NCBI GenBank assembly: GCA_004431415.1
Contig: QPMI01000144.1
Span: 1-64,000, forward strand
Source of the DNA: Cyanophora paradoxa CCMP329
Lineage: Eukaryota; Plantae; Glaucophyta
DNA length: 64,000 nucleotides
Reading direction: 5' to 3'
Positions 1 to 52,895 of the stretch are shown here, piece after piece (position 1 is the stretch's first letter; the number at the start of each line of letters is the position of its first letter). A program made the position numbers and the translations under genes. A model generated the notes under the pieces. The model was not told the DNA's origin. It was given only the letters and a program-made list of their open reading frames with translations, and ran no database searches.

Positions 1-1417
1 GCTGCGCGGGAGGAGTCAGCAAGGGCCCAGAACTCCGAGACTGAGTCTCGCAGCATGTCTAAGAGTTCTCCCTGTTCCTCGGACTCGTTGGCTGCGGCCG
101 CGAGGTCTTCCGCGACGCGGCGGATGTCCGCGGTCACCTCGGCCCGCTGGGCTGCGGCCGCCGAGTTGAGGGCGAAGCGGGTGTCCTTTGCCGCCCGAAT
201 GATCTCTGCCCAGAGGGCGTCGAACCAATCGAGCCACTCCGGCGTGCCCGTGTCGGGCACGTAGTTCCACCCGGCGAGGTGGCCGGCGCGCGCCGCTGGA
301 CGATCGTCTCGACCTTTTCCCGGAACCGCTGGGCTGCAGGATGCGATCGTCAAAGCGATATCGAGGCGTCGCGCGGGGGACGGCGGATGGAAGAAGGAAT
401 TCGGCGAAGACCGCGTCGTGGTCCGGCCGATGTTCCGGGCCCGCGCACAGAGCGACGCGACGGCAACGGCGCGGTCTGCGATCGAGAGCGCAGGGAAGAT
501 GTAGTCAAGGCGAGCAGCATCGGAGCGGGAGGGCGCGGCTTTTGAGGTGTAGTGCGTGAAGAGTGGCGTCGTCGGCATGCGCCGCCGGAGCACGTCTTCA
601 AGGCCGAGCTGCGCGAGGGCATCAGCCCAATGGTCGAAGGGTTGGTGCGTCCGGTGTCCGCGAGAGTCGAGAGCGGGGTCAGCGAACGCGTTGAAGTCGC
701 CGAGGAATATGAGGTGGGCGGCGCTGAACCGCGGGCTGCTGAAGCAGTCAGTCAGCTCTTCCGCGAGCTCGGCTTGCTTATCCGCGGCGTTCGGGGCATA
801 GATAGCTACGAGGATGATGGTCTCGGGCGGCCGGGGGGACGGCGACGGGAGGGTCAGCTCCACCGCGAGGACGTCGTCGGCCACCGCCGGGGCGAGCTCT
901 GGAAGAGGGAGCTCCCGCACGGCGAACGCGGCTGCCTTGCGCGGCCTGTTGCGAACAATAAAGGCGACCCCGCGCTTGTAACCTGCGCCAGACCGGTCGA
1001 GAGGCGCCGGGCGCGCGATGATGCGATGTGTGTGTTGGAAAGCCGCGGCGGCGGCACGGATGCTACCCGGTTCTGGCCGGAGTGCGGTGGTCCCGGCATC
1101 CTCCTGGTGCCAGCGGTGGTCGACAACTGCCAGGATGTCGGGGTCAGCTTCGCGGAGGAAGGTCGCGAGCCAGGCGATGCGGCTGGGGCCGCGGCTGCTC
1201 TGGGTGTTGATGGAAGCCACCCGAAGCGTCGGGAGGCGGTCAGGCAGCTCCGGCGCGGTCCCGATCGTCGGGATCTGCATGTTAGCCCTCTGGCGAGCGG
1301 GGTGGCTTGGGGAGGTTTTCGGACACGCTTCGGAGTCTCTGCGGGGGCCCACCGGTCGCCGCTATCCCGCGCGCCCTACTCTACGCTCCCGGCGTGCTCC
1401 CAGGGGGGTATCGAATC
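1..1417 (-). mobile_element. Non-LTR retrotransposon (LINE) 5' part: short leader plus APE endonuclease ORF from ATG 1280, running off the window
   Basis: Minus-strand translation from 1280 shows APE/EEP motifs LRVASINTQ, PDILAV, GVAFIV, VAIYAPN, LGDFNA, RLDYIF and (after a frameshift) PDHDAVF; GC-rich with an abrupt composition change at ~1410. Confidence 0.85.
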
Positions 1418-1418: not shown

Positions 1419-1511
1419 ACCTGTTCTGGGATCATAGAACTTCTTAGCAATCTTCGACTCTTTTGGTGCTGTCTCAGCTGGGAGGGTCTCTGGAATTAAT
1501 TGCTTGACCAT
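1419..1511 (-). pseudogene. N-terminus of rve integrase of element 1, truncated by LINE
   Basis: MVKQLIPETLPAETAPKESKIAKKFYDPRTG aligns with the element-2 integrase start ASRIKQAYYDPETG; same position downstream of pPolB. Confidence 0.7.
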
Positions 1512-1658: not shown

Positions 1659-4600
1659 TCATATAATAAATGCAAGACTCTGTGTGGAAGGAGAACACAA
1701 TTCCCAACTACTTTGCAATTGAGCCCAATGATCCAGGATTAAGATGTATATGGCTGCTGCATTTAATTCGCGGTTTGTTACTTCTTGGAGAGCGAAACCA
1801 AAGAAAAAGAAAGATTGATGAAGTAGATTAGAGCCCAAATGGATGCTGTGAATTCCATCGTCTAATATCTTCCTTTTGCTATCGAGTTGGTTTAGAGCCA
1901 CCCTTCTGCTCTCCAAATCATATAGGTTGTGGTCTTGTCTTCGCTTGTTTACTACTGCTACTGTTTTGGTGATTCCTTCAAACAAGCATCTTTGAAATCA
2001 TCAAAGTGAAACCTCTTTGGAGGAAGTCCCAGACATTTTTATTTTATCAAAGTCCAGTTCTGAAAGCATAGAGTTTCGATCTCAGACCTACATACTCCAC
2101 AATCTTTGCATTGGGAAACTCGTTTTTATATTTTACCTGGAATCAAGCGATTTCTCCTATCATAGAGAGGGTGGGCAGTATCATAATTACTGCAATCCAG
2201 GTGTTCAGAAATTCGCTTCATCTCATTATTTAGATCATTTGTATGCAGCAGTAGACAGAAAGAATCTGTATCATGGAATAGTAGCTCTGCTGTTTCCCAA
2301 GTTCTCCTCACCACATCATAAAAGAACCTGCTATTATGGAGTTTCGCGAAATCCAGCACAAAAGCACCAATTGCAACAGGTTTATCTAAGTGAACATGCT
2401 TTTGAGTACATCTCAAAGGCAACAGCTTTTTCGTTTAATACATTGGTTGCCTTGATGAGTGGACTTGCAGCATATTTCTTGCAGAGTTTCTCACTGTTAG
2501 CAATCTTAACCACAGAGCGACCCCTGCATGATTCGAGGCATTTACCATAGATTGCATTGTTCATTAATTTAAAGAAGTCACTCTCGAATCTGGACATAGA
2601 TTGGCGCCTCAGTTTCGTATTTAGATCAATATAACTCTTCATAAATGCAGAGGTTGCAAATGAGAGAACCCTGTGAACCTTCGTGATTATAATACCTTTG
2701 CTCACAAGATAGATCAAGAGAGGTTGGGAAATCACATAGTTGTTTTTGGGCGAGAATGTTGCTGTGAGTTTGGGGTCTTTGCTTATCTTCTCACCTGTGA
2801 TATCCAGTAGTTTTTGTTGATACCCACCCAGCATTTCGGTGGTGACATGTTCTTTATTAACTACAAGTGGAAAATCGTAATGATCTGTGAGAGTTTGTGG
2901 TATTCCAGGTCAACTTCAATAAAGGCACTTCGTCCTTGGGTCTCTTTAAGTGCCTCTGTGACATCTTCCCAACGAAAATCTCCAATGGGCAGTTCTTGAA
3001 TGAGAGCATAACCATACAGATTATTTGCATCCAAGAGAACTATATGGTCATCTGGGTTTTCCACCTTTGCATATCGAGTAGGCATTGTAGCAAACCCACC
3101 TCGAATTGCCCTCTCAATAAATTCGTATTGCCCTACATCACTGATCTGCTCGATCTTTGCTCTGGTGTAAATTAGCATTGCATCCCAGGACAATCCAGGA
3201 GCCGAAACATAATGGGCAGGATCTAATCCATATTGGGAAAACGCCAATTCTCGGAATTTCTGGAATTTACCCATTAGATCACTTGCATCCACTGCCTGGA
3301 AGTCCATGAAGTGCGAAGCATCTATGAATTTCCACATGCCCCATTGCAGAGAGAGGTATTGATCGAAATTCTTGCTCAGGATCTCAACACGAAGTTTATC
3401 ATCTTGCTGTGCAATTTTGCGGAATATTTCGTGTCCACATTCATCCATGTGATCCACCACAATTGCTACTTTCGTTTGCTTTGAGATTCTCCTGTGGAGG
3501 TTGCAGTTTCGGCATGCTTTTCCAATAAAAGCTCCTGATTGATGACAATGGTCTCTCACTGGGAAATTCTCATGGGTAAATCGTTCAGCACAGATATAAC
3601 AGTGTTTAGTGATCTTGTATTGTGCTTTCTGCTCCTCTGTGAGTGGATGCATGGGAATATTGGTGAATAGAGTGCGAATTACTTGGGGTCTGATCTCTGT
3701 GAGAGTGGTAAACAGAGCACCAAGGGGATCTGATCCATCAAAATAATGAGAGATCACCTCATCCCCCATCACAACTGTTAGAGAAACCGATTTTACCTCT
3801 CTCTTACTGCGGTTCTCATCAATTGGAACCGAGTGACTATCCATTTTCACATAGCAGATAGCGGGAAGCCACACAGTTTTGCGAAGGTGTTGCAGACCAA
3901 ATGCAATGTGACTTCCAGATTTCGGGCATTTACCTTTGCTCTCCCTCCAATCAATGCAGCGATTCGCTTCTATATGTACATCCAGCTTCTCCTGAGTTCT
4001 GAAACGAGACAGACAGGTCTCACAGTAATAAATGCGACCATCATGGGCTTTATCAAAGGTGGTTTTCAGAAGTCTACTCAGAGACATGATGGTGATATAA
4101 TGCCCTCTATCATCCTCTTCGTTTTCGATTATAAAAGGTTAATCTTGGTCTTTCTCCTGGGGTTGCTGGATTGGTGGAGAGGATAGAAACACTGTGCAGT
4201 ATTATCTGCCCCATAAATGTTGATACTCAGTTCAGGGTTCTGCTCCTCAAATCGATCAATCACCTCTGCATCACAGGCAACTGGAAATTGGATGCCCTCG
4301 AAATTGAGTTCGTTCAACCATCTTCTATACTGGCTGGGTTCATTGCTCTTGTGTTTATTAATATCATTTCGGTGCAGGTAAGCCAAGATTGCATACTTGA
4401 AGCAGTCTTGACCATCAATATTCTTCACATTCACAGTTGCTCTCTTTAATCCAATCCACTCAGGTGTTGAGAAGAAGCAACCACCCACAGGAGCATAGGA
4501 CATTATTACTACTCTGAGCATCTCAATGCGATCCAGTCTGTAACTGTCAACTTGCATCATCTGCTCCTGCATGGATTGAAGGGCATTTCGCAGTTCAACA

Positions 4601-5102
4601 TCAATATTTCGTGATCTTGTGATGACAAAGTAATCACTGTAAATGAATTTGGTGATCCACACCCTTGGATCACTCACTTTGGTGAATTTACAAATGAAGG
4701 TCAACCGAGTCTTAATTGCTCTCAGGTCTTGGAGTTTCTGTCTGAGTCTCTGAGGTAGAGTGGGTGCAATTCTCTCCAAGAATTCAATCCATCTTGGATA
4801 ACCTCCCCTCTTGCTCGATAGGTTAACCAAGAATATGCTTTGTTCATTGCTTCCCATCCTCAATCTCGGTTCAATTGTTCCCAACCTTAAACCTTCATCC
4901 CTGAATTCCTCCATTTTCTCAAACGATCATAGAGGCGATTTGTAATTTCTGTGAGTTGAGATAACCTTGGTCTCCTATCCAAGATTGCTGCCTGGCGATC
5001 ATATTCGAATTCTGTAATATCACCAGTAACTAAAAGGGTTCCTAAAAGACCGAGTATTTCGTTTTTCTTCTCTTTGATGATTCTATTGGATTGGCGGGGC
5101 AT
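1659..5102 (-). CDS. Protein-primed family B DNA polymerase (Maverick/Adintovirus type), in several frameshifted pieces
   Basis: ORFs 4887-5102, 4129-4914, 2861-4087, 2382-2834, 2126-2422, 1659-1985 carry CFKYAIL, DHCH..GKACRNCNL, YGLDPAHYVSAPGLSWDAML, AIRGG, DANNLYGYAL, KLMNNAIYGK, HDTDS, DSKRKILDDGI. Confidence 0.9.
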
Positions 5103-5349: not shown

Positions 5350-5490
5350 TTTCTGTCTTAGTCAAGTGAAACACGCAACGATCCCTTAAATCGCCAGTCA
5401 ATTTTTGTCACAACACACCGATTTCCGATACGTTTGATATCCTTCGATTATTCTTCGGAAAAGTGATCGACCCACAGGGGGAGTCTGTGG

Positions 5491-5634
5491 TTAATTGGGT
5501 GTGACGGTGTGACAGGTGTGACACCTATTTTCAAACTTTTTAAACTTTTTAAAAATCCTCAGACTCCTGAAAACACCTGTCACACCTGTCACACCCGTCA
5601 CAGTCAATTAAAATACCTGTCACACCTGTCACAC
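5491..5634. promoter_or_regulatory. Candidate replication origin: inverted 9-bp iterons (GGTGTGACA/TGTCACACC) around an AT-rich spacer
   Basis: 3 forward and 5 reverse iterons flank ~50 bp of AT-rich DNA, immediately 3' of the helicase gene. Confidence 0.6.
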
Positions 5635-5700
5635 AAACCATTTACAGTAAGGGTTTTAAAAAATTAGAAATTCACAGTATAAGTATTGATTCCGTTTTAT

Positions 5701-8121
5701 TTACTCATCCCCAACCTCCTCATCACTGTCATCCATCAATCTGCGACCATGCTTCTTTATGATCCCAAAGTAACCACGGCAAAGTACACCATTCACTCGT
5801 TTTCTGTCAGACTTCACATTAAAGACTTCGCGAAGTCTCTTCATAATGGTGCAATCTGAGATTTTCTCATCAGATTTGCCCATGTGGTCTCTCTTGAAGT
5901 CACTCATGATGGACTCACTTGTAGTGAAATCGCCTTGACTCTTGGTGAGTTCATAATTCTCTCGAATCCACTCTCCAATCTTGTCATTCTCATTGAAATA
6001 CTCCATACCTTGATCAACAATGGACTGGGGAGGTTTGGTGACGAATGTATTGAGAGAATGGGTTCTCCACATTTCCAGGAGAATGGACATATGCGCCATT
6101 TTATAATCATCATCATTCTTCATGAGGCGCATGAGAGTGGTGTCTGCCTTCTTCTCACCAGGTTGAGGTTCCACCTTGAAGACATTTTCGAATCGGTAGT
6201 AGATAATTCGCCTTTGGATTGCTGCATCTGGTTTACTGATTCCCAGATTGTCATTTGTAGACAAGAACAACTGGAACATGGGAATGAATGTTACAAGATC
6301 TTTGAATAGAGTTCGAACCTTCATCTCATTCCCACCAGTAACTTGTTTGATTTTGTTCAGTTGAAGCATATCACCATCTTCTGCTTCATTACTGAAAACA
6401 ATTCGTTTACCAAGGATGCAAGCGAGTTCTGGGGAAGCCTCTGATGAACTCTTCTTGGTTTCGTCCAATAGGTCATATCCAGTGACCCATAGTATTCACC
6501 AAATGTGTCTTTCACCAACTCTTGGAGCAGAGATTTCCCATTTGCTCCAATTCCAGTCCAACAAGTGTATCTCTGATTTTCTGTCAAACCACTCAGGGCA
6601 TAGGCGATTAATCCCAACATAAATTCGCGGTCTGTATCCGATTCAATAATATCTGCATAGATGGACTTAATCTTTGCAACCTTCTCTTGGTCGATTTCTG
6701 TGGTATAATCGTAGCCAACAGTCTTGCTCACCATATCATCTGGGAGTCCCTGTCGAAAAGTCATGGAGTTCAAGTCAAATACACCATTTGTGAATCCTAT
6801 GATGTTGGGAACAGTATCAAGTCTCTCGAAAAAGGTCTTGTCACTGAACAGAACTGAAAGATCAGACATAAGTGCAGTTCTGTATGTAGTCTGTTTGAGG
6901 CTCTTAGCAATTCCCAGCAGAATCTTTGACCTTTCCTCCAAGGAATTGCGGTTCTCTTCATCACGAAGAGCTCTCTGTGCGAGTTGAACAGAACGTTGAA
7001 GATAAACTGGACAGACCTTGCAGCTCAAACAGAGAAAGATTCGCTTCCCAGTTTCATCCAACTCCCAAATCCCACATATATCATTGAACTTGAACCAGGT
7101 CTTGTTGGAATACTTGTATTTGTCTTGCAGAACAAGATAGGCAACCTGTGCAACATCATAATGGGCACCATCAGATCCAGCAGACCGATCAATCAGATTT
7201 TCGATCTTCACATCTGTCTCTTCCTTCACACGAACAGTGATGCTTCGCTTCTTGCAGTTTGCACTGTAACTCGAAACAATGTACTTGTCTTTCTCCTTCC
7301 CTTGAATAATATACCAATTGTTTGAGTCATGGCTTCCCTTGCAGCAGGGACAGATCAGACCTTTGTTCTCAGCAGTGAAATTGTATCCCATCTTGGTCTC
7401 ATTGATGATTGTGGGCAAGATGAAACCGAATTCTTCGAGTTTAGAAAGAATGTGTTTCTGCAAATTCTCCTCAATGCTCCTCACAATATAAGAATGTGCA
7501 CCTTTGGGGAATTCGTAGTTGTCAACAATCCACTTTTGCAACTCAGCAGTGGGTTCATTTAACTCACACTCAGATGCCCATGGCTCTCTGATCCAGGTTT
7601 TGTTGGGACTGGACAAACATTAATTACCCCAGCAGTCCCAGTGGATGCAATTGTTTTGCAATCGATCTTGGGGTTTCCTTTGAATGCACCCGCTTTATCC
7701 AGATCTTAATGGTGTCGAATTCAGCAGGTCGAGCGAAGAATGCATGATATCCTTTTTTGGTTTTAGCAAGAGGATTGACACCACCGAAATCATCAGGGAA
7801 TTGCTCCTCGAATTTGGCGAAATCCTCCTCTTGGTCAAAGTCAATTACCATGATATTACGAGCGAGAATGCCCCAAGCAGTATACTTACCGGATTTCAGG
7901 GCTTCATCGAATTTATCCCAATTCCAGGCTCCGTCTTTATGAGCGAAAAGGGGTTTTTTGGTATCAGGATCAACAGGAATTACGAGATTCTCAGACAGGA
8001 CATCGTCTTCACGAAGCCAGTCAACAAGGCGTTTCAGGATTTCTTGGCGGCAGCGTTCATTTCGAAAATCGGGGGCTTCTTATACTTAATGGAGAAATTA
8101 ATTTCTCCGGATCCTTGTCAT
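5701..8121 (-). CDS. Prim-Pol primase fused to D5-like SF3 helicase (frameshifted; start uncertain, ~8060-8121)
   Basis: VIDFD..KTKKGYHAFF (Prim-Pol), CPCC..H Zn site, IIGFTNGVFDL (D5_N), Walker A GIGANGKS, VFSNE, KQVTGG, RRI. Confidence 0.9.
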
Positions 8122-8254: not shown

Positions 8255-8482
8255 TCAGTATTTCCTGGGACGACCAACTGGGCGTTTTACTGGATTATTG
8301 GGATCCATCTCAGCAGCTTTCCTGCGATAATATCGTTCCAGTGCCTTTTTACGATATAATTCACGAAACTCCTCATCTTGATAGCGTTTCTGGAAGTACA
8401 AGCGGTCATACAACCTTTTCCTCTCATTGGGATCCATTTCGCTCATTGCAAGTTCGAATTCGACCACAGATTCAGTTTCCAT
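8255..8482 (-). CDS. Small basic protein with AT-hook
   Basis: KRPVGRPRKY AT-hook; RYQDEEFRE..ERYYR resembles 48401-48676. Confidence 0.7.
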   Translation of the reverse strand: METESVVEFELAMSEMDPNERKRLYDRLYFQKRYQDEEFRELYRKKALERYYRRKAAEMDPNNPVKRPVGRPRKY

Positions 8483-8683
8483 TTGATATGTTCCTTATAA
8501 TGGGACGAGAAAATAATTTGTCCGGGTTCACCAATCAAACACACCTTACCCTTAAATCCCTTGTCATTTTTTGCAGATCGAGACCAGTTCCTGTCTACGC
8601 TTTTTTATTGCGGCTTCGGATGCATATTCAGCGGATTTCCTGTCAAGGAGAGCATAGATCTCAGAGAGACTGAGCATTCGATA

Positions 8684-8917
8684 TTAATTACCGAGATTTA
8701 ATTTTGGATCTGTGAAAGATACAGAGCGTCGCCTCACAGTCTCTGTTTTAATATGCTCCTCGAAATCCACCGAGTCTGTGGATAATCTCCTACCACCAGA
8801 TCCGTGGCTTTCAGTATCTGAAAACTCGATTTCGACTTTGGTTTCACAGCAGCCACTGTGACAATTGCTCACAATGTGGAGATTAAACATCTCTATGATT
8901 TTTCGCAAGAAATCCAT
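8684..8917 (-). CDS. Small conserved protein with N-terminal amphipathic helix and CCET motif
   Basis: MDFLRKIIEMFNL..SGCCETKVEIEFSDTE homologous to the start of 63398-63802. Confidence 0.75.
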   Translation of the reverse strand: MDFLRKIIEMFNLHIVSNCHSGCCETKVEIEFSDTESHGSGGRRLSTDSVDFEEHIKTETVRRRSVSFTDPKLNLGN

Positions 8918-8944
8918 GATGCTCTCTCTCTTAATGCGAGATAA

Positions 8945-9679
8945 TTAAAGCCATACTCGTCGTTTATATACTGTTGGGGCAACACCTTTATCGACCTCTG
9001 ATTTGGTAGCACCAGGTTCAATGGTGCCCTTCTGGGTTTTGGTCTTCATCTCATCAACTGCCTGCTCATCGATTTGAGTTTCTTTCTTACCAATGAATTG
9101 CTTATCTGGGAGACCAGTGATTCCCATTCTGTACACCTCCTTTCGCAGCATCTCCTTCAATTTCGCTCTCTCTTTCTTCTCAGAGACATACTGTTCGAGA
9201 GCACTCGATTTCGCTTCCAGATCTTTCAGTTTCGCAGTCATTTCGTCCCATTGGGCTTTGGGAATTCGATGAATATTCTGTGTAGGTGCGACCTTGTAGG
9301 TGACCTCACCAGCCATGGATTGAATTACCTTGTCTGATTCTTTGGAGACACCTTCACCTTTGCGAGCCAGTGAGAGATCTTGCAGACCCAGTCCTTTATC
9401 ATCAGCAGCACCAATAATTCGACGAGCACCTTCACCAACTGCCTTCATCTTAGAGGTTTCGGGCGAAATATTGAGTTGATCACTGGTGGATGCTTGGGGC
9501 GCTTTATCATCTGGTGATTCTTCGTAAGCAGCATTAAGGGGATCCTCCTGTTGCTGTGATGCTTTCACTTCATTGACACCATTGAATTTCATGGGATCTG
9601 TGTTAATAGAACCGGTTCCAGAGGATGCAGAATATGACATAGCACCAGCAGGAACACCAACTTTGCGTTTGGAAGGCAT
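8945..9679 (-). CDS. Conserved hypothetical protein with coiled coil (possible virion core protein)
   Basis: Shares KLKDLEAKS..KERAKLKEMLR with 48872-49663; syntenic with the ATPase. Confidence 0.75.
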   Translation of the reverse strand: MPSKRKVGVPAGAMSYSASSGTGSINTDPMKFNGVNEVKASQQQEDPLNAAYEESPDDKAPQASTSDQLNISPETSKMKAVGEGARRIIGAADDKGLGLQDLSLARKGEGVSKESDKVIQSMAGEVTYKVAPTQNIHRIPKAQWDEMTAKLKDLEAKSSALEQYVSEKKERAKLKEMLRKEVYRMGITGLPDKQFIGKKETQIDEQAVDEMKTKTQKGTIEPGATKSEVDKGVAPTVYKRRVWL

Positions 9680-9707
9680 TGTATATTTATTAGAAGCAGA
9701 GATTATT

Positions 9708-10490
9708 TTACAAACCTCTCTTATATCGCATCAGTTTATTCGAATGAACACCACTCTTGACCTCTTTGGGGGCTTCCTCTTTCTGTGGAGGTGGTAATTC
9801 GTCCTCTTTCTTTTTGGGCTTCCTGTGGAACCGAGGAAATGGGAAATCTTTGACCAGATCCGCTTTATCAACATAATAGTTCACCGAATAATTCGCAGAA
9901 GACCACACAATATATTGGTAGGAGTGTACATACTCTTCAAACATCTTATAGAAATCGTCTTTGTTTCGCATGATATTGTATTCCTCTTCAATTGCTTCGA
10001 GCTCTTTGCGATTAGCAGCACTCAGGAACACAGCATAATCCGAATTTACTCGAATTGTTGATGAAACCTTCCTCAGCTTCTGTGTGATGCAGATAATCGA
10101 GATTTTTGAATGGCGACCTCTGGAATAGAGAGATCCCACGATTTTGTCTCGGGTCAAATCAATAATTTCGTTGTCTATGAGATCATCTAAGACCACACAC
10201 AGGTGATTAACAGGTTCCCCTTTTTCGATTTTCTCCTGCCTTTCATCCAGTAATTTAGAAATGTAAGCAGCATCCCATTTCCCAAGTTGCAATGTTGCTA
10301 CTGCATCCCAAAAATGATTGAAGGACGTCCCACTCACAACAAGAACAGTATCAATCTTTTTCGCATCATGCAGCTGTTTCAACCAATATTTCACACATTC
10401 TGACTTGCCTGTTGCAGACTTTCCTATGAAAAGAGCACGAAATGGTGGGGTAATCATCTCAGATGCAACAAACTCCTCTAAATCGTTCAT
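9708..10490 (-). CDS. A32/FtsK-HerA-like DNA packaging ATPase
   Basis: Walker A GKSATGKS, Walker B VVLDD, RGRHSKIS, ITQ, IRVNSDY. Confidence 0.92.
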   Translation of the reverse strand: MNDLEEFVASEMITPPFRALFIGKSATGKSECVKYWLKQLHDAKKIDTVLVVSGTSFNHFWDAVATLQLGKWDAAYISKLLDERQEKIEKGEPVNHLCVVLDDLIDNEIIDLTRDKIVGSLYSRGRHSKISIICITQKLRKVSSTIRVNSDYAVFLSAANRKELEAIEEEYNIMRNKDDFYKMFEEYVHSYQYIVWSSANYSVNYYVDKADLVKDFPFPRFHRKPKKKEDELPPPQKEEAPKEVKSGVHSNKLMRYKRGL

Positions 10491-10552
10491 GGCTTTGTAG
10501 ATCTTTCTTATTAAAGATAGATAAAAATAACGAACTGTTACTGATCATGGTT

Positions 10553-11926
10553 TTAGAGATTAATGCGTCGGAGCCCATCTTTGTCAACAATAATGAAACT
10601 GTGCATGAGAGCACGAACATTAACTGTGATTGTCTGGTCAGAAGGCATGTATAGAGTGAGGAAAGAGGAGGAGGAGTTCGTGAGATCAACATAGCCAGAC
10701 TGGGCAATGTTGCGAATCGCTTTCTCTCCATCAACACAGAATGGTAGACCACTGAGGACATATTTGTCTGCAACCTTGTCCATATTTGAGCACTTGAAGG
10801 CATCCGCAATTAATTCGGCACCTTTGAGGAGAGGGATGGGCTCAGTAGCATAGAGACGTTGACCATTAATTTCAACAGTGAAAGTAATGTCTTTTGAGTT
10901 AGCATGCGTTTTTAGGACACTGTGGGAACCATTGAAACCATCAATACCTGCGGCATCACGAACTGAAACAAGAAGACCATAGACAAGCCCAGAGATCTGT
11001 GACAGGTTAATACGATTTGGTTGAGCATTGCCTTTTGCAGCAAAATTGACACTGTCTACGAAACCAATATCCAGAGCAGGAATAGCCATACCAGTGGTCT
11101 TCACCTTCTCAATGACAGTAGCAAACAGTTCATCAGAAACATTAATAGCATGCATGTAAAGACGAGGAGAAGTGACTTTAATTTCGGGGGTTGTTGTTGC
11201 ACCAATTCCAAAAGTGGTGATTTGTTGACCAACATGGGCAAGAGTAGCATTAGCAGTAGCACCAAGTCCATCATCCTCTGTCTTATCAGCAGCTGTTCCA
11301 CCAACAACAGGAAGAGCACGACCACCATAAGAAGTCTCAACATAACCCTTTCCAGCATCCTTGAACCAGACAGTTACCACCATTTCTCCTGAGAGAGCAC
11401 CAAGAGGTAGGTAGTGGTTTAGCCATGGGACTGGGATTTCAGTGAAAAATGACCCACCAAGTCGGTTGGTTCCATGGGCAGGGATACCATGAACCATTCC
11501 CATTGAACGCTTCTTCTTGGCGAGTTGATCCTCACTGTAATAGATAAGAGGGAAATGAGCGAGGAAATCAGAAGGCACATGGAAGGTGTAAGATCCATAG
11601 GTAATTTCAAGTCGAGAGACAAGAGCACCAACTGGGCGAACGTATCCATTGCGAACAAGGTCGGTATCACCAGCAAAAGTGACAGCTGGAAGGTCAAACG
11701 CAAGTTCGAGTTTTCCACAGAAATTGTAGCGAGGGAGCTTGAAAGAAATGCGATTTCCAGCATTATTCTCGAAAGTGTTGCTTGGGTTCACAACAACAAG
11801 AACTGGCTTCGACTTGGATTCAAGACCAAGCATGAGAGAGTTGTCCAGGAAAAACGCCTTGGCTTCTTCCGGGGTTGTTAGAGCTTCTTTCAGAGAAAGA
11901 CGTTGGAGGGTCGAAGTAATATCCAT
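10553..11926 (-). CDS. Major capsid protein (predicted double jelly-roll)
   Basis: ~457 aa, beta-rich, between ATPase and minor capsid gene; most conserved protein between the two elements. Confidence 0.82.
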   Translation of the reverse strand: MDITSTLQRLSLKEALTTPEEAKAFFLDNSLMLGLESKSKPVLVVVNPSNTFENNAGNRISFKLPRYNFCGKLELAFDLPAVTFAGDTDLVRNGYVRPVGALVSRLEITYGSYTFHVPSDFLAHFPLIYYSEDQLAKKKRSMGMVHGIPAHGTNRLGGSFFTEIPVPWLNHYLPLGALSGEMVVTVWFKDAGKGYVETSYGGRALPVVGGTAADKTEDDGLGATANATLAHVGQQITTFGIGATTTPEIKVTSPRLYMHAINVSDELFATVIEKVKTTGMAIPALDIGFVDSVNFAAKGNAQPNRINLSQISGLVYGLLVSVRDAAGIDGFNGSHSVLKTHANSKDITFTVEINGQRLYATEPIPLLKGAELIADAFKCSNMDKVADKYVLSGLPFCVDGEKAIRNIAQSGYVDLTNSSSSFLTLYMPSDQTITVNVRALMHSFIIVDKDGLRRINL

Positions 11927-11980
11927 GATTATCTCTTTTATTATACTGCAACATAAAAAATTCACCAATGATCCTTGATT

Positions 11981-12990
11981 TTACGCAAAATTCGCAATAA
12001 CTGGATAAGATGGATGTGTTTCCGCCATTCTCCTCTTAAAGTATTCGTACACAGGATCACCAGCAGGTTCATCACCATATCGAATTTCGAAGGTGAGGTG
12101 GACAGGTTGACCCTCGAAATCAATTGGTTCATTAACTGCATTCACAATATCAACCGAAAATGTGGAAAGTCCCAGATTCTTGTTATAGTATTTATAAATC
12201 GGATGGGCTTCTGTCGAATTATAAACGACATGCTCACCATAATCTTTATCTGGAACAACGATTTTGTGGAAATATCCAGTGAGGAGACCATCACCACATT
12301 GAACCAGATCACCCAACTCCTTTACTCTCACAAACAGAACACTATCCCTGGTCTTTTCAGGTTCAAATGAAGATATGATACCATGCACCATCGACCAGTA
12401 AAGATACCATCAGTCAGAGTATTATAAACTTGTGATTGGATTGGGGTGTTACCATATCTCCCAGGATCAAGACCAAGCAGTCGAGCAGAACTCAAAAACC
12501 TCTGAATCTGCGCCTGGGTTGGGTTTATTGCAGTTGAGAAAGCCAGGTAAAACGGTATGGTGGAATGGAATATTACTCGTTTCAGTGTATCATCCCATTT
12601 ACAGCGAATTGCTACTGGTGGCTCTCTCAATGCAAGTTTGGAGTTAATTACATTCACCAGTTGTTGGTGGTTTTGAATGGGTGTGCTGCGACTTATCACA
12701 ATGTGCTTCCATTGCTCATAATCGGCAGCAGGTCGATCAGTTGGAATACCAGTGCTTCCTGCACCAGAATAATATTCAGACCAATAAAGGTAGATTGCAT
12801 TATCTATTGTCACATCTCCTACTTTGGTTTCACCACTCACCATGGGAATGCTGTTATAGAATTCTGCTGAAACCAGTCTTACTGCTCTCACAAATTCATA
12901 GGTGCTGGGGAGGCGAGCAATAAAACTCGAAGTTGGTCCATCTCCCGAAATTGTATTGAAAGAGCTCACTTCGATGTAATCCACAGGCAT
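11981..12990 (-). CDS. Minor capsid (penton-like) protein 1, frameshifted near 12390
   Basis: VRAVRLVSAEFYN..., LSTFSVDIVN...DFEGQPVHLTFEI; homologous to 51912-52868. Confidence 0.8.
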
Positions 12991-13018
12991 CTTCTTTTAT
13001 CTATAAACATATATTAAA

Positions 13019-13950
13019 ATGATTCGGCTGGTCAATATAGATAGCAGAGACCGATCAGATGGACAAATAGAAAACTCCTACAAAGTTTCACTCACAACCC
13101 CAGTGACCAAACCAAGAGAATGTCGAGTTTTGTATGCAGAGATCCCCAACAGCATCTATAATTCCATTGGAACAGACCACCTTCTTCTCAGATTCTTCTA
13201 CCAAGGCATCTCTGAAACCAAACAGGTCTTCCTTCTCCCAAGTGGTTATATTAATCAAGGGCATTTCGGGGTCACCAGTCCATATAATTATGGTCTGAAT
13301 TTCACCTTTACTGGGAGCAACAATCTCACATATGCATTCAAGGTCTACTACAATCCTACCTCCTACAAGTTGGAGTTTTACAGTAATGTTCAATTCGAAT
13401 TGGTAGCATCTACACAGCGATTGGGTAAACTTCTTGGGGTGAGTTCTGTTGATTGGGTCGCTTCAATTGAGCAAACCTACGATTTCCCAGAGTCTGCAAG
13501 GTCTTTATATGCCCCAGAGAATTTCCTATATTTTGCAGGAGTACCAATCACCCCAAACCATCCCAATGGGGAATGACATTCACAGGATATGAATTCGAGG
13601 CATCTCGCTTAAACTACAAGTTAGAAGCAGCCAAGATGACAGATATGAATGCAGAACAGTACTTGTACATGCACATTAAAGAACTCTCCCCATTTGCTAC
13701 AAACCACAATATTGTCCCACAATCTCAACCACAGAATCAAGGGGCGATTCTCAGATTGCAGTTAAGTAAAGATATTGGGCAGTATGTTTATCACAGTGGA
13801 GAGCACAGTGAATACATAAAAATAACCGATCGAAACCTGGTGATTAGAGAGTTAACAGTTGAGTTTCGCGATTATTATGGTGATCTTGTTGATATGAATG
13901 GAATTGACAACTCATTCCAGTTGGAGTTTCTGGCTATTGGTAATGATTAA
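13019..13950 (+). CDS. Minor capsid (penton-like) protein 2, frameshifted near 13570
   Basis: NIDSRDR, YAEIPNSIYN, YLYMHIKEL, LTVEFRDYYGDLVDMNGIDNSFQLEF: typical PLV/NCLDV minor capsid motifs. Confidence 0.82.
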
Positions 13951-14338: not shown

Positions 14339-14388
14339 TGAGAAATTCAGAATTTCAGATGGTCTTACTGAAAATGGTCAGATAATCG

Positions 14389-14883
14389 GGTGTGACACCT
14401 ATTTAATTGACTGTGACGCCTGTGACAGGTGTGACACCTATTTTCAAACTTTTTAAAATTCTCACAAATTACAGACTTCTGAAAACACCTGTCACACCTG
14501 TCACACCCGTCACACCCAATTAACAAAAGACTCTATTTCTTACTGAGATATTCAAGAATTTATTGTTGTCTTACTGAAAACAGTCTATGTGACAGGTGTG
14601 ACACCTTCAAAATCCACCCAACAATAGTCGATTTCATGAATACCTTTCTGTCTTACTGAAAATGGTAAGGAGACCAGGTGTGACAGGTAGTTTAATTGAG
14701 TGTGACAGGTGTGACAGGTGTGACACCTATTTTCAAACTTTCTAAATTTTTCAAAAATGACAGACTTCTGAAAACACCTGTCACACCTGTCACACCTGTC
14801 ACAGACATTCTACCCCTCTTACTGACTTTCTCAAAAACAAATATATCTATTACTGAATATCATTTGAATACTACCTGTCACAC
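14389..14883. repeat. Two further copies of the iteron/AT-spacer cassette plus isolated iterons
   Basis: 14403-14523 and 14691-14803 repeat (GTGTGACAG)3-CCTATTTTCAAACTT...CTGAAAACACC-(TGTCACACC)3 seen at 5491-5634. Confidence 0.9.
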
Positions 14884-14916
14884 TTGAATTCAATTATTCT
14901 GTTTTATAGAACATAT

Positions 14917-15175
14917 GCAATCTAATCGATTGTTCAATTGGAGACCATGCAACTCTGTGACACTTTTTCGATCTAAAATATAAATCCGCAATCTCATCGA
15001 TTGTTTAATTGGACATAATGCAGTTCCGATATATTCCAATAGAAAATCCCGCAATCTAATCGATTGTTTAATGGGAGATAATGCAACTCTGTGACACTTT
15101 TTCGGTGCAAAAATGTACATCAGCAATCTCATCGATTGTTCAATTGGACACAATGCAACTCTGTGACACTTTTTG
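14917..15175. repeat. Four degenerate ~63-72-bp subterminal tandem repeats
   Basis: GCAATCT(A/C)ATCGATTGTT(C/T)AAT.GGA...ATGCAACTCTGTGACACTTTTT at 14917, 14988, 15051, 15123 (second copy diverges in its 3' half). Confidence 0.85.
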
Positions 15176-15494
15176 CGTTTTTCGATACAGAATGGGCGGT
15201 GGTCTACTTCAATACATGAGAGTTATATCGAGTTTATGCGAATTTATGCAATTTAATCGCAATTATATCGATCTTTAAGCAGTTTAATGTTAATCTATCG
15301 CAGATTTGTATGTAAACAACAAAGTACATAATCAATCGATATAAGATCAATTGAATCTATCGAAGTTTAATCGAAAATATGCATTTTGGTAAACGCGTTT
15401 TCATTTTTAATACAAAGTTTGCATTATTTTATACAAAGTTTGCATAAAAAGTTTAAGAAATTAATCGAAAAATATGTATTTTAGTATTAAATTA

Positions 15495-15589
15495 ACACAT
15501 ATTGAAAAACGAATTTAAATCCAGAGTGAATCGAGATCGCGAAGCGATCGAGATGAACGAGGGATTTAAATTCGTTTTTCAATATGTGT
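15495..15589. repeat. Terminal fold-back of element 1
   Basis: 28-bp perfect inverted repeat (15495-15522 / 15562-15589) enclosing GATCGC-GAA-GCGATC. Confidence 0.9.
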
Positions 15590-18300
15590 GTGGGCCTGGA
15601 GGGCAGATGCAGAGGCGAACCGAGTGCCGCAGGTGCAGGAGAAGTCAGACGTCCCGGCGGCGGGTCCTGCATCGGGCAGCTGGGGGGAGGGAGGGGCCTG
15701 GGGTGAGGGGGCGACGGGGAGTCGTGCAATTGCTTGGCGGAAGTTTTCCAAGAGAATCCATGGTTGGCCTTCCGAGCCCAATTCGCAGCAGAAGTCGGTG
15801 ATGGAGATGGTATCATGGAGGGAGGGGCGGGGGGGGGGCGGGGGGAGGGGGGGACTGGGCGGCTGCACTAGAGGCGAGCGGGAGGGTTTGGAGTCTGCAT
15901 GTTTGCGGTACCGACGTTTGGTTTTGTCATTGATGCCGTGTCGGAGCTCCCAGGCGTGGTTGCGGGCGCAGCGGTCTCTCCAGATCGCACGGAGGTGTTG
16001 GTCAAGGAGCAGCGCTAGGTCTTTTTGGATTGACGATGAGGTGGTCTTGTTGATGCCCAGAGCTGTGCAGAGGGCAGGCAGTCCTGCCGGGGTACCGAGG
16101 CGCAGGAGAGCGAGGGCGGGGAAGGGAAGCATGTCGGCCAGGGCCGGGCTGAGTTTTTTCCATAGTGTATCGGCGAGGCCGGGGGGGCGGAAGAGAGCCG
16201 GATTTGCGGTGGGGGAGAGAAGGGCGGAATGGAGGGGAGAGGCGGGGTCAGGAGAAACGAGGCGGAGGAAGGGGAAGAGTTGAAAGATGGTATCGTCGTG
16301 TCCTAGTGGTTTGGGCGAGTGGCGGAGAACCCGGGTACGGAGGAAGGTCACGAGTGCGTCCTGGAAAGCTTGGAGAAGGAGGCAAGCGGCGGGGCAAGTA
16401 AATATGTGGACGAAGTCTTCGGGGGGGTGGGTTGTGGGGTCGGGCGGTCTGGGGTCTGCGGCCCTCGGTGGGGAAAAGGGCGAGGGGGAGCCCGGGGGGG
16501 TGCATGTGGCAGGGGGCGGGGAGGGGGGGGGTGGGGAAGCAGCATCTTCGGGGATGGGGGCAGGGGTGGGAGGGAGGTGACAGAAGGGGCAGTGGGCGGT
16601 GCCGTCGGGGAAGAGAGGGCCGTAGAGGTCGGGGTCGTGGAGGAGGCGGATGGTGAGGGAGGGAAGGCTTCCAAGCATGCATTGGAATCTGACTTTGCGG
16701 AGGTGGTCGCCTGTGGGGGTGCGGCGGTCCGGTGGCTTGTCGGACACTAGGGAGAGGGCTGGGGCGAGGGTAACATGGGGGTTGCTGAGGATGGCCCCCG
16801 CGTTGCGAAGTTGGCGCCAGTCAAGGTATTGGGAGAGGGAGGCTTCGGCTAGGAAGTGAGGGCGGGGGTCCCCCTCGACGCGGTACGCATGGAGTCTGCC
16901 TCGGTAGGGCTCGGCCCCGGGGACTGGGCCGTGGGATAGTGGGGGCGGGAGGCCAACACGGATGAGGAAGCATTTGAAACTGTGGGGAATGAAAAGAAGG
17001 GCGGAGAGGGGGGCGTCGGGGGCTGTTTTAGCAAGCTTGTCAACGGCGTCATTGTGGCGGTTGTCAGGGGTGTAGGCTGGGTTCGGGATACGATTCTTAG
17101 CCGGGGTGCGGGCCGCCTCTTTCTGTGCGGCTGTTTTGGATGTTTTGGCGGACCGTGGTTGCGGCAGGGTGGCTTCACGGTGAGCGGCTTCAGTTAGGAT
17201 GGACGCCGCTTCGAGTGGGGTAACGTGGGACGGCCGGAAGAGACGGCGCGCTGTGGCGGAGGCTTCGTTGCGAGCCAGGTCGGCGAGCTGAGAGGCGAGT
17301 TCTTGGGCGTAGCGGGCGCCGGGAGGGAGGGGGGTGGCGGGCCCTTCGGGGCGGGGCGGGGGAGACTCAAGCACAGTTGGGGAGCGCGGGAGGGCTGGAT
17401 GGTTGGGGGAGGATGGTGGGGAGTCGAGGGTAGGGAGGGTGCCGCCGGTGGAGACTGGGGGGCGGCGCGGCGGATGGGTACGCCCGGGGAAGGTCGGCGG
17501 GGGCCGGAGGGCCGGGAGGGTTGGGCTGCAGCATAGGGGGTCAAGGGTGACGGACCCGTAGCAGAGGCTGAGGGTAATATATTCACGGTATCTGCGGAGC
17601 GCTGCAGCGTCGGCCTGAATGTAGGCTGGGGGGCGGGGCAGGTCCGACGGGGTAAGTGCTGAGGAACGACTGAGTAGGTCAGCTGTGAGGAGGAGGAGTG
17701 GACCGCAGGCCGTGCTGTTTGGGGGCTGGAGAACGGAGAGGGATGTCTCCGGGCGTAGATAGGTCCATCTGCAGAAGGGAGTGGGGGGGAGGGGGATCCA
17801 GAGTCGCGCTGACTCCAAGTGGCCGCCAAGTCTTGTGCAAAGGAGACAAGGTGATCAGGGACGTCGAGGGAGCCATTGTAGAAGTAGAATGAGCGCGTCT
17901 GTGGAAATAGGGCAAGTAGGTGCCAGTGTCCCGGAGGTCTGCTGGAGGAAGGGGTCAGCGAGGGGGCTGGTGGGGTCTGTTGAATTGGGCAATAGGTGAG
18001 GATGGGGACGAGAGCGAGGCGGGCATCGAGGAGTCGTCCGTGGGGGATGTATCGGTGTAGGGGGAGGAGGGCAGAACCCCGAGAGTCGAAGTGGGAGGCT
18101 GCGCTAGCAGGGTAGGAGCTGGAGGATAGGAAGTGAGCGGGGTGGGGCGAGGCCAGGGCGGCTTCACGGGAAGAGAGCAGGTCAAAAAAGGCTTCCACGA
18201 GGGGGAGGCTGAGGGGGGCATTCGGACGGAGGTGTATAAGGTCGCCTCGTCGAATGAGTGAGTAACAGTGAGGGTCGGCTCGGGCTCATGCTGTACCCCC
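15590..18300 (-). mobile_element. 5'-truncated LINE fragment: Ulp1-like protease, RNase H-like remnant, zf-RVT, C2H2 finger
   Basis: GHWHLLALFPQTRSFYFYNGSL and QPPNSTACGP (C48 protease), RPSH..HNDAVDKLAK, CPFC..EDFVHIFTCP, IWRDRCARNH; intronless. Confidence 0.7.
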
Positions 18301-39307: not shown

Positions 39308-39400
39308 TAATGTCTGAATTTAATGCAAACGCGCGCATTTCAGCGTTTCAAAATCAAAAAAAGATTTTGCACACGTGCACGTGTGCAAGTATACGTCTAC

Positions 39401-39683
39401 TGTTGTAAAGGGGAGGACCCCCCCCCAAACCAGACCGCCCCCAAAGTCTGGTTTTACCTTCAGGGATCCACCCCTTCTAGCGTCATCAATTAGCGATTTT
39501 TCTGAGATCAGTTAGGCGTGTTAATTAGGCGTGATGATGGACGAGCATGGATTTGAAGATTGGAAGGCGTGAGGGCGAGTGCATTTGGATCTGAGTAGAG
39601 AATATCGAGGGAGCTCTATCTAGGCGCTATCAGGGGCGACCTCCCAAGCGGTACGGGCCCCCAGAGCGGTCTGGTGCGGCCTC
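39401..39683 (+). repeat. Left TIR of element 2 (outer end inferred at TGTTGT, 39401)
   Basis: 39422-39683 is the reverse complement of 63739-64000. Confidence 0.92.
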
Positions 39684-43850: not shown

Positions 43851-46800
43851 ATGGCCAGCACTGCAGCACTTAAGGCCGAACTTAGAAATTTAGCGACAGA
43901 ACTTTATGATCGTGGATATGTTCACGGGACATTTCGAAACAAACTGATGCGCCTAGCGGACGCTAGCAGCGGGACCTGGGGCCAAACGATTCGCAAATAT
44001 ATAGCGACACTGCTGCGACTGCGGAGCACGATTCGCCCAGCACGCCGCTTATATGAAGGCCAGCTCGCAGGCCATTTTGGCGCAATTGCAGCAGCTCGCG
44101 CAAACGCGGTTCAGGCCGAGGAGGCGATACTGGAGGACGTTCCTAATATATTTCAGGATGTTGAAGAAATTCCCGTGCCACAAGATCTGGATGGGGTGCT
44201 CTCTCACAGGCACCACCGCTATCCGAATTTACTATTCGATAAGCACGTATATGCAATCGAGCCCACCTACGATCCGGAGTCCGTAAAGAATTTAACTATC
44301 GACGTTCTGGGTCAACTGGGCATTGCAGAGATGATAGGGCGATTTGTGTTAATCCGGTTCCGCTTTGACAATAATCACATGTATACGACCCAGCTGATCC
44401 AAATAAGACAGAACGGGTTGCAGAGTTTGACTGAGAGTTTAGATGAGCGGATTGCGCAGTGGATGTCAGCACAAATGTCATATCAGGAGGACGATTTCTG
44501 GACGGTAACATCGATCGAGGTGTTAATTGCAGACAACGCGGCTGGCGCCCTAGGCAATGTTCCGAAATTGCCATTTTATCATAGGACAGTCGATAAGCTA
44601 TACTGCCCGATGTCCCCAGCGAATGACTGCGTGCTCGAATGCTTTGAGTACGTTAAATTAAATCCACGCGGACTGAGCCTGAAGACAGTAATCGAAAAGC
44701 TGGCAAAGGCACCCTATGCATCTATTCGAGAGCGGCTCGGACTGGGAAAGGGCATGATATCTCTTGATCGCAGCACAGTAGAAGCAATCTGCGGATTTTA
44801 TTCGATAGATACAACTGTGACGGAGTGGGCAAACACGAAATTCAAGGAGCTTTTTCGAACCCAGTTTGATTATTCGAAGCGTGCAATTCTCTGCAACATT
44901 GATGGGCATTGCTACCTGATTAAAAAGGAGGCGACACTAGGTCTGGAGCGGTGCCCTTGCTGCGGAAAGATGTTTGATTTGGCAACGCATGTGGAGCAAT
45001 GCACGTTCTGCAATAACTGCAAACGCGCGTACGACCCCAGAAAAGATCATTCATCAGAGTGCCAGGAGATGACGCGCCGTCAAAACGTGATCGGGCGGCA
45101 AATCAAGCCCTGCAAACCGGAGACAGAATTTACAGCGTTGGACAGCGTTGTCTGCGCGGATTTTGAAACGTTTGCTGCCAACGGCAAGACGCACGTTCCA
45201 TATGCTGTCAGCTATTGCACGATTGAAAAAGGGGAGGTCTCGCCATGCGAGTTAATTTATGGTGAGCAAACGTTGGACTTGTTCATGCGCTGGCTTGAGC
45301 GCCGCAGCGAAAAGACGACGTTGGTGTTCTACAATGGGTCTGGCTTTGACTATATATTTGTCTACAAATGGCTCGTGTTAAATCGACCGAATACAGCATT
45401 AAACGTTCTGCGGTCGAACGGCAAGATCAAGAATATGTCGTGGAAAACGGCTGCAGGCGGGCCTATAAGTACGTTTGATCCGTGCCTGCACATCCAGGCT
45501 TCGCTCAAACAGGCCTGCAAGGACTACGGCTGCACTAACGTAAAGGGAGATTTTGATCATAGCAAGATTAAAACGTGGGAGGACGTTGAGCGCTTTAAAT
45601 CTGAATGGGAGCCGTACGTGGAAGACGACGTTAAGGCAATGACAGAGCTTTACATTAAATATTCGACAGCAGTCTTCGATCTGTACGGCTTAAACGTGAA
45701 CACAACGCAAACAACCACAGCTTCGGCAATGGCGTTCCAGATTCATCGGCAGACGTTGATCAATCCAATTTCGCTACCGACCTACAAGGATGATCAGGTG
45801 CTGCGCCAGGCAATATATGGTGGACGGTGTCTCCCATTTAAACGCAAATTCGTCTCATCGGGCCCGGATGATTATTTAGTCGACCTGGATGTTGTAAGCT
45901 TGTATCCGACGGCTATGTACGAGAATTGGTTTCCAACTGGAAAGTACAAGCATATTACGTCGCCCGATGCGCTGGACAGATTCTGCAAGATATTACAATC
46001 GAATCAGCGTTCGTTGATGTTTATTGCGTGCGTGGACGTGACAATTCCGCAAAATCTGCTGCTCTCTCCGCTGCCACGGCACGAATCTAATCTAGGCTGG
46101 TCTAATCTCAAGCCAATTGAGCGCGGTTGGTATACGTCAGTCGATATTAATCGTGCAATTAAACTGGGATGCGAGGTGACGAAGGTGCGCGAGGTCTACC
46201 TGTTTGACGGTAAAGATCAGATGTTTAAGACCTACATGGAGCGGATGTACTGCCAGAAAGCTAGATCTCGCAAGGGAACAGCTCCGTATGCGACGTCAAA
46301 GATTTACATGAATGGCCTTTACGGTAAATATTGCCAGCGGCCTGTGATCACAACCTCGGATCTGGTCACATCATACAAGCGATTTCGAGAAATTCAGCGA
46401 TCAGCGCAGATCACAGACATTTCGATCGAATCAGACACGCGGATGTTTGTCACGTACGAGATTGAGGAGTCCAAGCGTGATAGAGCTGTCACTAAACCGT
46501 GCTTTATTGGCGCATTTATTCTGTCATATTCGCGGGAGATCATGGACAGGTTTCTGATTGAAATAGGCGCATACTGGAGCATCGATGCAATGCCGTTTTA
46601 TACTGATACGGACTCTTTGATTGTCCATCGAAAATACGCTGATCTGCTGCGGGCAAAAGGTTATATGAAGCCAGCATATGATATAGCGACGGCAACAGAT
46701 GCGGACATTTGCAGGCAGGAACTAGGGAAACTTGACTGTGACATTAAAGGGCGGATTGTGGAAGCGTACTTCATTGGGCCGAAGCTTTATACGTGTTCAT

Positions 46801-49663: not shown

Positions 49664-49672
49664 CTTTTTCTC

Positions 49673-50416: not shown

Positions 50417-50478
50417 CAAAAAATTAACTACCGAGATTCGCAGGCGCAGCCAAGGCAGCTTGTCTGACGACACTTCGA

Positions 50479-52868: not shown

Positions 52869-52895
52869 CTTTTTTATATCAGTTAGAGAATAAAA

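Follow-up and report, generated by a model that had tools for sequence, protein, structure and literature searches.

The window analysed here comprises 64,000 nucleotides of the glaucophyte Cyanophora paradoxa CCMP329 (contig QPMI01000144.1, positions 1 to 64,000) and contains two islands of low guanine-plus-cytosine (GC) content, at ~1.4 to 15.6 kb (37 to 45% GC) and 39.4 to 64 kb (38 to 54% GC), in surroundings of 54 to 80% GC. The islands are two integrated viruses, element 1 and element 2, with 24 kb between them, and both are read here as polinton-like viruses (PLVs). They code for homologous capsid modules together with family B DNA polymerases that use a protein as primer (pPolBs), of two distant clades, and the pPolB of element 1 has lost its exonuclease motifs and lies beside a primase-helicase gene. 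The replication genes, capsid genes and repeats that bear on this are as follows, by position in the window.

Element 1, 1419..1511, minus strand: likely N-terminal stub of an rve integrase, 31 codons, with a YDPxTG match to the N terminus of the element 2 integrase
Element 1, 1833..5102, minus strand: pPolB of the Maverick type, split into at least seven frame pieces and carrying an endonuclease VII (EndoVII)-like insert; its polymerase motifs are kept and those of the exonuclease lost
Element 1, 5481..5651: mirror-image GTGTGAC block, directly after the helicase gene (repeat analysis)
Element 1, 5701..8079, minus strand: PrimPol plus D5-like superfamily 3 (SF3) helicase in three frame pieces (Prim-Pol E 0.002, D5_N E 3e-10, DUF5906 E 1e-4)
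Element 1, 8255..8494, minus strand: short basic open reading frame (ORF) for which no counterpart was identified in element 2
Element 1, 8684..8917, minus strand: short ORF; its homolog (40% over 50 amino acids [aa], E 2e-10) is at the far end of element 2, 63398-63802
Element 1, 8945..9679, minus strand: coiled-coil protein, homologous to that of element 2
Element 1, 9708..10490, minus strand: A32-like packaging ATPase (Pox_A32 E 4e-11)
Element 1, 10553..11926, minus strand: double jelly-roll (DJR) major capsid protein (MCP), 56% identical to the element 2 MCP, whose model matches DJR capsids
Element 1, 11981..12990, minus strand: likely minor capsid protein 1 (mCP1) in two frame pieces, homologous to 51912-52868
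Element 1, 13019..13950, plus strand: likely minor capsid protein 2 (mCP2) in two frame pieces, homologous to that of element 2; its C-terminal part resembles mCP1
Element 1, 14362..15184: two further mirror-image GTGTGAC blocks, 88 to 91% like 5491-5611, and an array of ~65-bp repeats
Element 1, 15495..15589: terminal palindrome of 95 bp, likely the element end (palindrome search)
Element 2, 43851..47060, plus strand: pPolB of another clade, exonuclease motifs intact (DNA_pol_B_2 E 2e-50)
Element 2, 47148..48334, plus strand: rve integrase in two frame pieces (rve_3 E 1e-8)
Element 2, 48872..53785, minus strand except for mCP2: capsid block of coiled-coil protein (48872-49663), ATPase (49673-50416), MCP (50479-51867), mCP1 (51912-52868) and, on the plus strand, mCP2 (52896-53785)

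The two elements were compared by blastp across all six-frame ORFs of at least 50 aa. The coiled-coil pair is 37% identical locally over 120 aa (E 2e-20; 28% globally), the ATPase pair 37% over 246 aa (E 3e-46; 39% globally), and the MCP pair 55% over 465 aa (56% globally). The mCP1 pair aligns at 31% over 184 aa plus 39% over 130 aa, with the element 1 copy in two pieces, and the mCP2 pair at 31% over 143 aa and 35% over 129 aa; at the DNA level the modules are similar in three patches only, at 69 to 71%. Both packaging ATPases score above the Pox_A32 cut-off. These five genes, including the divergent mCP2, are homologous and colinear, with the same order and relative strands in both elements, as the original prediction stated, and the ORF map agrees with it that in element 1 the pPolB and the primase-helicase run in the same direction as the capsid genes. 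Colinearity does not extend over the whole span from 8255 to 13950, as the homolog of the short ORF at 8684-8917 is at the other end of element 2. A low-depth contig in three of four read runs omits 8696-8922, so this small ORF is variable in presence as well as position. The modules differ on their outer sides too. Element 2 carries a patatin gene, an HNH-AP2 gene, and five fibre-like genes there; on this side of element 1 lie a single short ORF, repeats, and the terminus. The identification of mCP1 and mCP2 as minor capsid proteins is one we infer, and their position and N-terminal motif fit this reading.

The fold of the MCP was modeled for element 2 from 10 sequences (predicted local distance difference test [pLDDT] 61), giving two beta-rich domains. 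The best Foldseek rows are all DJR capsids (iridovirus MCP, E 2.8e-15; PBCV-1, 6.9e-15), the closest structural matches being capsids of nucleocytoplasmic large DNA viruses (NCLDVs). VIA returns Z 15.0 with 306 residues aligned and a root-mean-square deviation (rmsd) of 15.5; with a high Z and a large rmsd, the fold class is clear and the packing of the domains is not. A features search with P0001, the nearest MCP relative (a EukProt protein of C. paradoxa, 65% identical to the element 2 MCP), returns Capsid_N clusters. Foldseek, VIA, and the Capsid_N clusters identify the MCP as a DJR protein, so that the refuting condition named with the original prediction, an MCP of another fold, does not apply.

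A profile of three MCPs has eight matches among 1.84 billion proteins, none named Maverick; one of the eight, P0004, was discarded as a low-complexity false match. Here and below, statements on published work refer to the portions of each source that were available. P0001 appears in Table S2 of Bellas 2023 (PMC10120064), where HHpred matches it to an iridovirus MCP at 98.5%, and the 465-aa MCP next to it starts like that of element 1; Tables S2 and S4 hold 366 MCP hits for C. paradoxa in two 'new' clusters of 272 and 94. By column count of those tables, the clusters are 21 and 29, and the absence of a group name was read in the same way. The available part of Bellas and Sommaruga 2026 mentions neither Cyanophora nor glaucophytes. 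The suggestion that the capsid lineage is undescribed is therefore not upheld: as far as these tables go, it is catalogued from C. paradoxa but unnamed. Neither MCP is matched by the virophage families Sputnik_MCP_1st and MCP_V20_C of Pfam, which do match loci L042 and L087 (E 9e-54 to 2e-33), and Pfam finds none of the Mriyaviricetes hallmarks (HUH endonuclease, VLTF2/3) in the larger ORFs of element 2. The MCP query returned no loci in viral or metagenome contigs, and queries with P0008, P0010, and P0132 returned none in viral contigs. The MCP profile also matches, weakly, ORFs in three environmental, PLV-like loci (L001:5865-7286, L045:6800-8338, and L040:6270-7664; E between 1e-9 and 2e-6, from a small set), which are possible distant relatives of the capsid lineage and include both kinds of pPolB. 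The lineage appears to be a nearly host-restricted branch, unmentioned in current classification schemes so far as their available text goes.

The polymerases present a different picture from the capsid proteins. Aligned directly by blastp, the two pPolBs show at best 26% identity over 110 aa (E 0.004), and the 120 database matches listed for each have no protein id in common. Among those of element 1, most carry an Endonuclease_7 domain, the named ones are from coral, wasp, and beetle, and the nearest is P0011 (43% identical in this search); the label Maverick-type is drawn from these matches and from the EndoVII-like insert. The matches listed for the element 2 pPolB are a separate set at 27 to 38% identity. 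Trees of 54 rows (the top matches plus every sixth, giving 25 and 27 of the 120 listed for each pPolB) and of 17 rows both split the two polymerases with support of 100, and the approximately unbiased (AU) test rejects their sisterhood (p 7.8e-75; log-likelihood 309 lower). The predicted distinctness of the pPolBs holds, as does the description of element 2 as having a different pPolB facing its capsid genes with no helicase match (ORF map, Pfam, and trees). Relatives of the element 2 pPolB adjoin Sputnik-type virophage MCPs in two distinct loci (L042 and L087), and in L045 and L040 they sit beside the MCPs that weakly match the profile of this lineage. Adintovirus-like PolB variants in C. paradoxa have been noted (Starrett, PMC8502044).

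One capsid lineage with different replication modules is thus supported by both the module homology and the non-sister pPolBs, and the elements are very probably of mosaic origin. The same pattern could in principle arise without a swap, from an ancestor that had both polymerases and lost one in each descendant, or by vertical divergence. Two-replicase elements do exist (Barth 2026, 10.64898/2026.10.13.758929), and an unrooted tree gives no direction, but tblastn finds no remnant of the other element's pPolB in either element, the MCPs are 56% identical whereas the polymerases are barely alignable, and each pPolB has closer relatives outside the window, which together make this account extremely unlikely.

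The pPolB of element 1 has lost its exonuclease catalytic residues. Within an unbroken piece (2900-4135), other residues stand in place of the ExoI Asp and Glu, the ExoII Asp has been deleted, and ~93 aa containing ExoIII are missing. The four exonuclease acidic residues are kept by 118, 118, 118, and 119 of the 120 matches listed, whereas element 1 and P0011 have none of the four and the same ~93-aa loss; motif spacing is 35 in the element 1 type against a median of 128 (n=109). P0011 has this deletion within an unbroken ORF, and as it is only 46 to 47% identical to the element 1 protein, the loss is a lineage trait rather than decay of the element 1 copy. The polymerase domain has kept its motifs A, B, and C intact. 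The element 2 pPolB has all four exonuclease residues, as do 14 of its 14 nearest relatives. Among those listed, differences from sister copies fall at third codon positions in 13 of 17 places in the element 1 pPolB (p 3e-4) and 15 of 18 in that of element 2. Near several frame breaks, contigs built from short reads show single-base indels relative to the window, so many of the breaks probably represent errors of the long reads or are confined to this copy.

The helicase of element 1 has the Walker A motif GIGANGKS, and Pfam finds no helicase match in the ORFs of element 2. The exonuclease domains of phi29-type polymerases also aid strand displacement. Exonuclease loss together with helicase gain has been described for mavirus (superfamily 3 helicase, S3H) and for PLV fusions of pPolB with a superfamily 1 helicase (pPolB-S1H), and was read as compensation (Krupovic 2024, PMC11071308). 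In motifs and gene content the element 1/element 2 pair fits this rule, likely as an independent case, although the odds that the loss is functionally coupled to the helicase seem to us even. A query with P0011 gave one distant locus, L001 (30%), which has ExoII and ExoIII motifs and no helicase match. The element 1 helicase has no phmmer match in 90 loci, 89 of them found through the element 2-type pPolB (partial contigs, with relatives at 23 to 37%), and helicase-specific Pfam families are absent from 59 ORFs of the longer loci, which are likewise partial contigs of distant relatives. No earlier report of exonuclease loss in a Maverick-type pPolB was found in a literature search that covered few subscription papers and no bioRxiv supplements, and that yielded just PMC11161782 and PMC5499653.

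A different reading of these observations is that the PrimPol-SF3 protein has taken over replication of element 1 and that the pPolB is a decaying passenger in a transient replicase replacement. The exonuclease loss itself, the many frame breaks in this copy, and the terminal palindrome and mirror blocks are all in keeping with this, and in Halocafeteria palindromes are mostly associated with non-pPolB replicases, and pPolB plus D5 was read as transient (10.64898/2026.07.28.741278). We nevertheless regard it as unlikely, since the polymerase motifs are intact, the third-position bias (13 of 17) is retained, the frame breaks are likely read errors or private given the single-base indels relative to short-read contigs, and the unbroken P0011 with the same deletion at 46 to 47% identity indicates a long-lived state.

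Read depth differs between the two elements. Contigs of four read runs were mapped onto both, and depth was taken relative to two single-copy flank contigs per run. Element 1 is level, with the pPolB at 22 to 33x, the helicase at 29 to 38x, and the capsid genes at 27 to 39x. Element 2 is stepped (left arm, 4 to 6x; pPolB, 7 to 11x; rve, 9 to 11x; coiled-coil gene, 5 to 7x; MCP, 28 to 45x), with its capsid block ~4 times deeper than its polymerase in all four read sets. Binned depth in run X1 is 384 to 1591 over 39657-49616, one bin aside, and 3581 to 5972 over 49617-56900 (HNH bin, 1353), and the step lies between the coiled-coil gene and the ATPase, as in the other three runs. At 90% identity, about three-quarters of the capsid blocks of element 2 type probably lack a connection to the element 2 polymerase, and the step hints at recent arm exchange. 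One bin of the left arm, 40985-41648, has a depth of 4556 in X1 and ~10 times that of its neighbours in all four runs, and is likely a segment common to many elements. The exchangeable cassettes of the original prediction are thus shown in part only: two elements with 56% MCP identity establish at least one old replacement, in whichever direction it occurred, and the depth step suggests more recent exchange, short of proof.

Element 1 also has a distinctive set of repeats. The window contains 25 copies of the heptamer GTGTGAC, where 4.05 would be expected (0 of 100 shuffles), and 20 of the copies are within the mirror blocks. The block at 5481-5651 is likely an origin or regulatory site, though a putative one, and the second and third blocks lie within 14362-14807, near the right end. 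Element 2 has tandem 20-mers with GTGTGAC at 42457-42654, upstream of its polymerase arm, despite having no helicase. GTGTGAC was considered as a cis element common to both elements and rejected, as the four sites of element 2 (42469-42633) are all inside one tandem repeat.

The repeats bracket exactly the helicase and capsid genes of element 1, which raises the question of whether this element is a chance composite, with a repeat-bracketed helicase-capsid virus (5481-5651 to 14362-14807) beside a separate transpoviron-like pPolB-rve unit. Repeat-bracketed replicases and tandem units are described by Barth 2026, including in a contig with a C. paradoxa accession prefix. However, depth is similar for both parts of element 1 in four of four runs, neither a step nor host DNA separates them, and the second and third mirror blocks are inside the element, 700 to 1100 bp from its end, so that a composite of this kind is very unlikely.

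The remaining features concern the boundaries, flanks, and accessory genes of the elements.

1..1361, minus strand: AP endonuclease part of a retrotransposon like a long interspersed nuclear element (LINE) (Pfam Exo_endo_phos E 3e-7, GC step)
15566..17854, minus strand: likely C-terminal part of a LINE ORF2, abutting the element 1 right end (C2H2 zinc-finger match only, E 0.001)
39399..39683: element 2 left terminal inverted repeat (TIR), with a 262-bp match to the right TIR; start near 39399 inferred
53777..55351, minus strand: element 2 patatin-like phospholipase (Patatin E 8e-26)
55377..56105, minus strand: element 2 HNH-AP2 endonuclease insertion (Pfam), absent from most sister copies
57508..63364, plus strand: five element 2 fibre-like genes (PTR-PTR-H_lectin, C1q-like, and paralogs; Pfam, blastp)
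63739..64000: element 2 right TIR, cut by the window end

Element 2 has 262 bp of TIR that match at 100% in inverted orientation (39422-39683 and 63739-64000). A single-copy contig stops at 39428 in four of four runs, placing the left end near 39399 and giving a probable length of ~24.6 kb, so that with a TIR of at least 262 bp element 2 falls within the 15- to 45-kb, TIR-bounded size range of PLVs; the left end of element 1 is outside the window. A perfect 22-bp palindrome lies just beyond this probable left end, at 39367-39388. Element 1 is interrupted on the left at ~1415 by the LINE-like AP endonuclease ORF, and the ORF at 15566-17854 we take to be a LINE ORF2 from its motifs. The right-end palindrome (15495-15589), when translated, is the start of C. 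paradoxa gene_58741 in Table S2 of Bellas 2023 (PMC10120064), the rest of which is a different MCP, and this suggests that elements with the palindrome end insert into the capsid genes of other PLVs.

The integrase and protease genes correspond only in part to expectation. The arrangement of a pPolB followed by an rve integrase, predicted for both elements, is present in element 2, whereas element 1 has just the 31-codon stub. This agrees with the element 2 integrase N terminus in 7 of 13 positions, a score that 3 of 2000 shuffles reach; it has no Pfam match and is followed by the LINE. The lack of adenain noted for both elements can be judged in element 2 only, the left end of element 1 being cut; no protease family was found in a Pfam scan of the element ORFs, which a remote homolog could escape.

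Among the accessory genes of element 2, the HNH-AP2 gene (55268-56134) splits a resident ORF and supplies a replacement 5' end (61% over 38 aa). Contigs omitting 55378-56105 have a depth of 1518 in run X1 compared to 169 for the contig that includes it, making the gene likely a recent homing insertion present in few copies. The five fibre-like paralogs have a common N-terminal domain (30 to 48% identity) and differing tips (PTR/H_lectin or C1q-like); the PTR-PTR-H_lectin architecture is reported once in the available literature, in a C. paradoxa PLV (PMC12220804). A small element 2 ORF (48788-49144) that overlaps the end of the coiled-coil gene has an ExoX-like C-terminal motif (E 6e-6), and a short ORF of element 1, at 13934-14377, is DUF5710-like (E 0.002). 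Between the elements, GC-rich host segments at 27399-28734 and 31618-32970 are duplicated ~4.2 kb apart (71 to 74% identity) and are likely halves of an intron-rich host gene, although their raw ORFs have no Pfam match. For 18 ORFs between the elements Pfam gives no match, and the 64-kb window has no tRNA genes.

We consider it probable that these are integrated PLVs in which one capsid module has come to be combined with two distant pPolB clades through arm replacement, the exonuclease-less pPolB of element 1 likely working with the primase-helicase. Recombination next to the capsid module would replace the replication-integration arm, and the swap likely involves copies that are co-resident or co-infecting, within a genome that has hundreds of such viruses. 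Element 2 would then be primed by protein at its TIR ends, copied by a self-sufficient proofreading pPolB, and integrated by its rve protein. In the element 1 family, a still-selected, exonuclease-less pPolB may depend on the SF3 helicase for unwinding, with PrimPol adding priming, and the helicase likely loads at the GTGTGAC mirror blocks as putative sites. It is a matter of roughly equal chances whether the element 1 family represents a third, independent exonuclease loss with helicase gain, in a Maverick-type pPolB and with a proofreading, helicase-free counterpart in the same genome and capsid lineage whose arm is still exchanged.

Several points weigh against this account. The gene-by-gene comparison involves two elements only, and with capsid genes just 28 to 56% identical, any swap between element 1 and element 2 themselves must be old. 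The pPolB trees are unrooted, with no outgroup and without mavirus or reference Polinton sequences, and the pairing of exonuclease loss with a helicase here comes from one lineage. The variant places in the codon-position counts are from the best 40 of ~500 rows. Depth values were selected from printed rows, contig depth is not copy number, and summed contigs inflate variable regions (patatin, for example, at 28 to 80x); the step in element 2 could also reflect truncated copies or polymerases less than 90% identical, and at the level of single bases no recombination junction was observed. The element 1 integrase is a stub only. For the capsid proteins, the rmsd of the MCP model to solved capsids is 15 to 19 Å, with the barrels likely mis-oriented, and the mCP probes give DUF5901 at E 0.12 at best, a single-sequence mCP1 model with pLDDT 36, and no PDB sequence match.

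It is already established that replicases are swapped while the capsid stays the same, and the pair described here adds an example rather than a principle. The compensation of lost proofreading by a helicase rests on two cases in the available text of Krupovic 2024 (PMC11071308), to which element 1 likely adds an independent third. A third case, together with an intact control in one host, would make the compensation testable by comparative genomics and enzyme assay, and if the reading is true, the elements are a natural matched pair for asking what leads such viruses to give up proofreading in exchange for a helicase.

The swap itself is of a known kind, already in print (Jeong 2023, Barth 2026). 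The polisuviruses of Barth, Ha, and Aylward (10.64898/2026.10.13.758929) likewise have syntenic, homologous morphogenesis modules with different replicases, and in both systems the pPolB stays with a DDE integrase and repeats bracket replicases; their paired examples are in tandem with DNA 70 to 100% identical, whereas those here are 24 kb apart and similar in short patches of 69 to 71%. The available text of that report does not discuss exonuclease status. Nematode Polintons (Jeong 2023, 10.1101/2023.08.22.554363) similarly combine one capsid set with two pPolB clades (16% identity) in one genome, although their MCPs are 92% identical, both pPolBs retain every exonuclease motif, and the elements include a protease. 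Replacement of pPolB under one capsid is also described in cryptophyte PLVs. The mavirus pPolB with S3H and the PLV pPolB-S1H fusions (PMC11071308) resemble element 1 in having lost the exonuclease alongside a helicase, but element 1 differs in its Maverick-type pPolB with an EndoVII-like insert, partial exonuclease deletion, separate PrimPol-SF3 helicase, and non-virophage capsid. The PLVs and virophages of Halocafeteria seosinensis (10.64898/2026.07.28.741278) also have mobile replication and integration genes in one host, with pPolB and D5 together, as well as terminal palindromes, LINE insertions, and PLVs without a protease; the host and capsid lineage are different, and the pPolB plus D5 examples there are virophages. 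The C. paradoxa MCP clusters of Bellas 2023 (PMC10120064) are of the same capsid lineage, with replication genes undescribed in the available part of that source. What is new here is an exonuclease-less Maverick-type pPolB with a helicase, beside an intact control, and the depth step of element 2.

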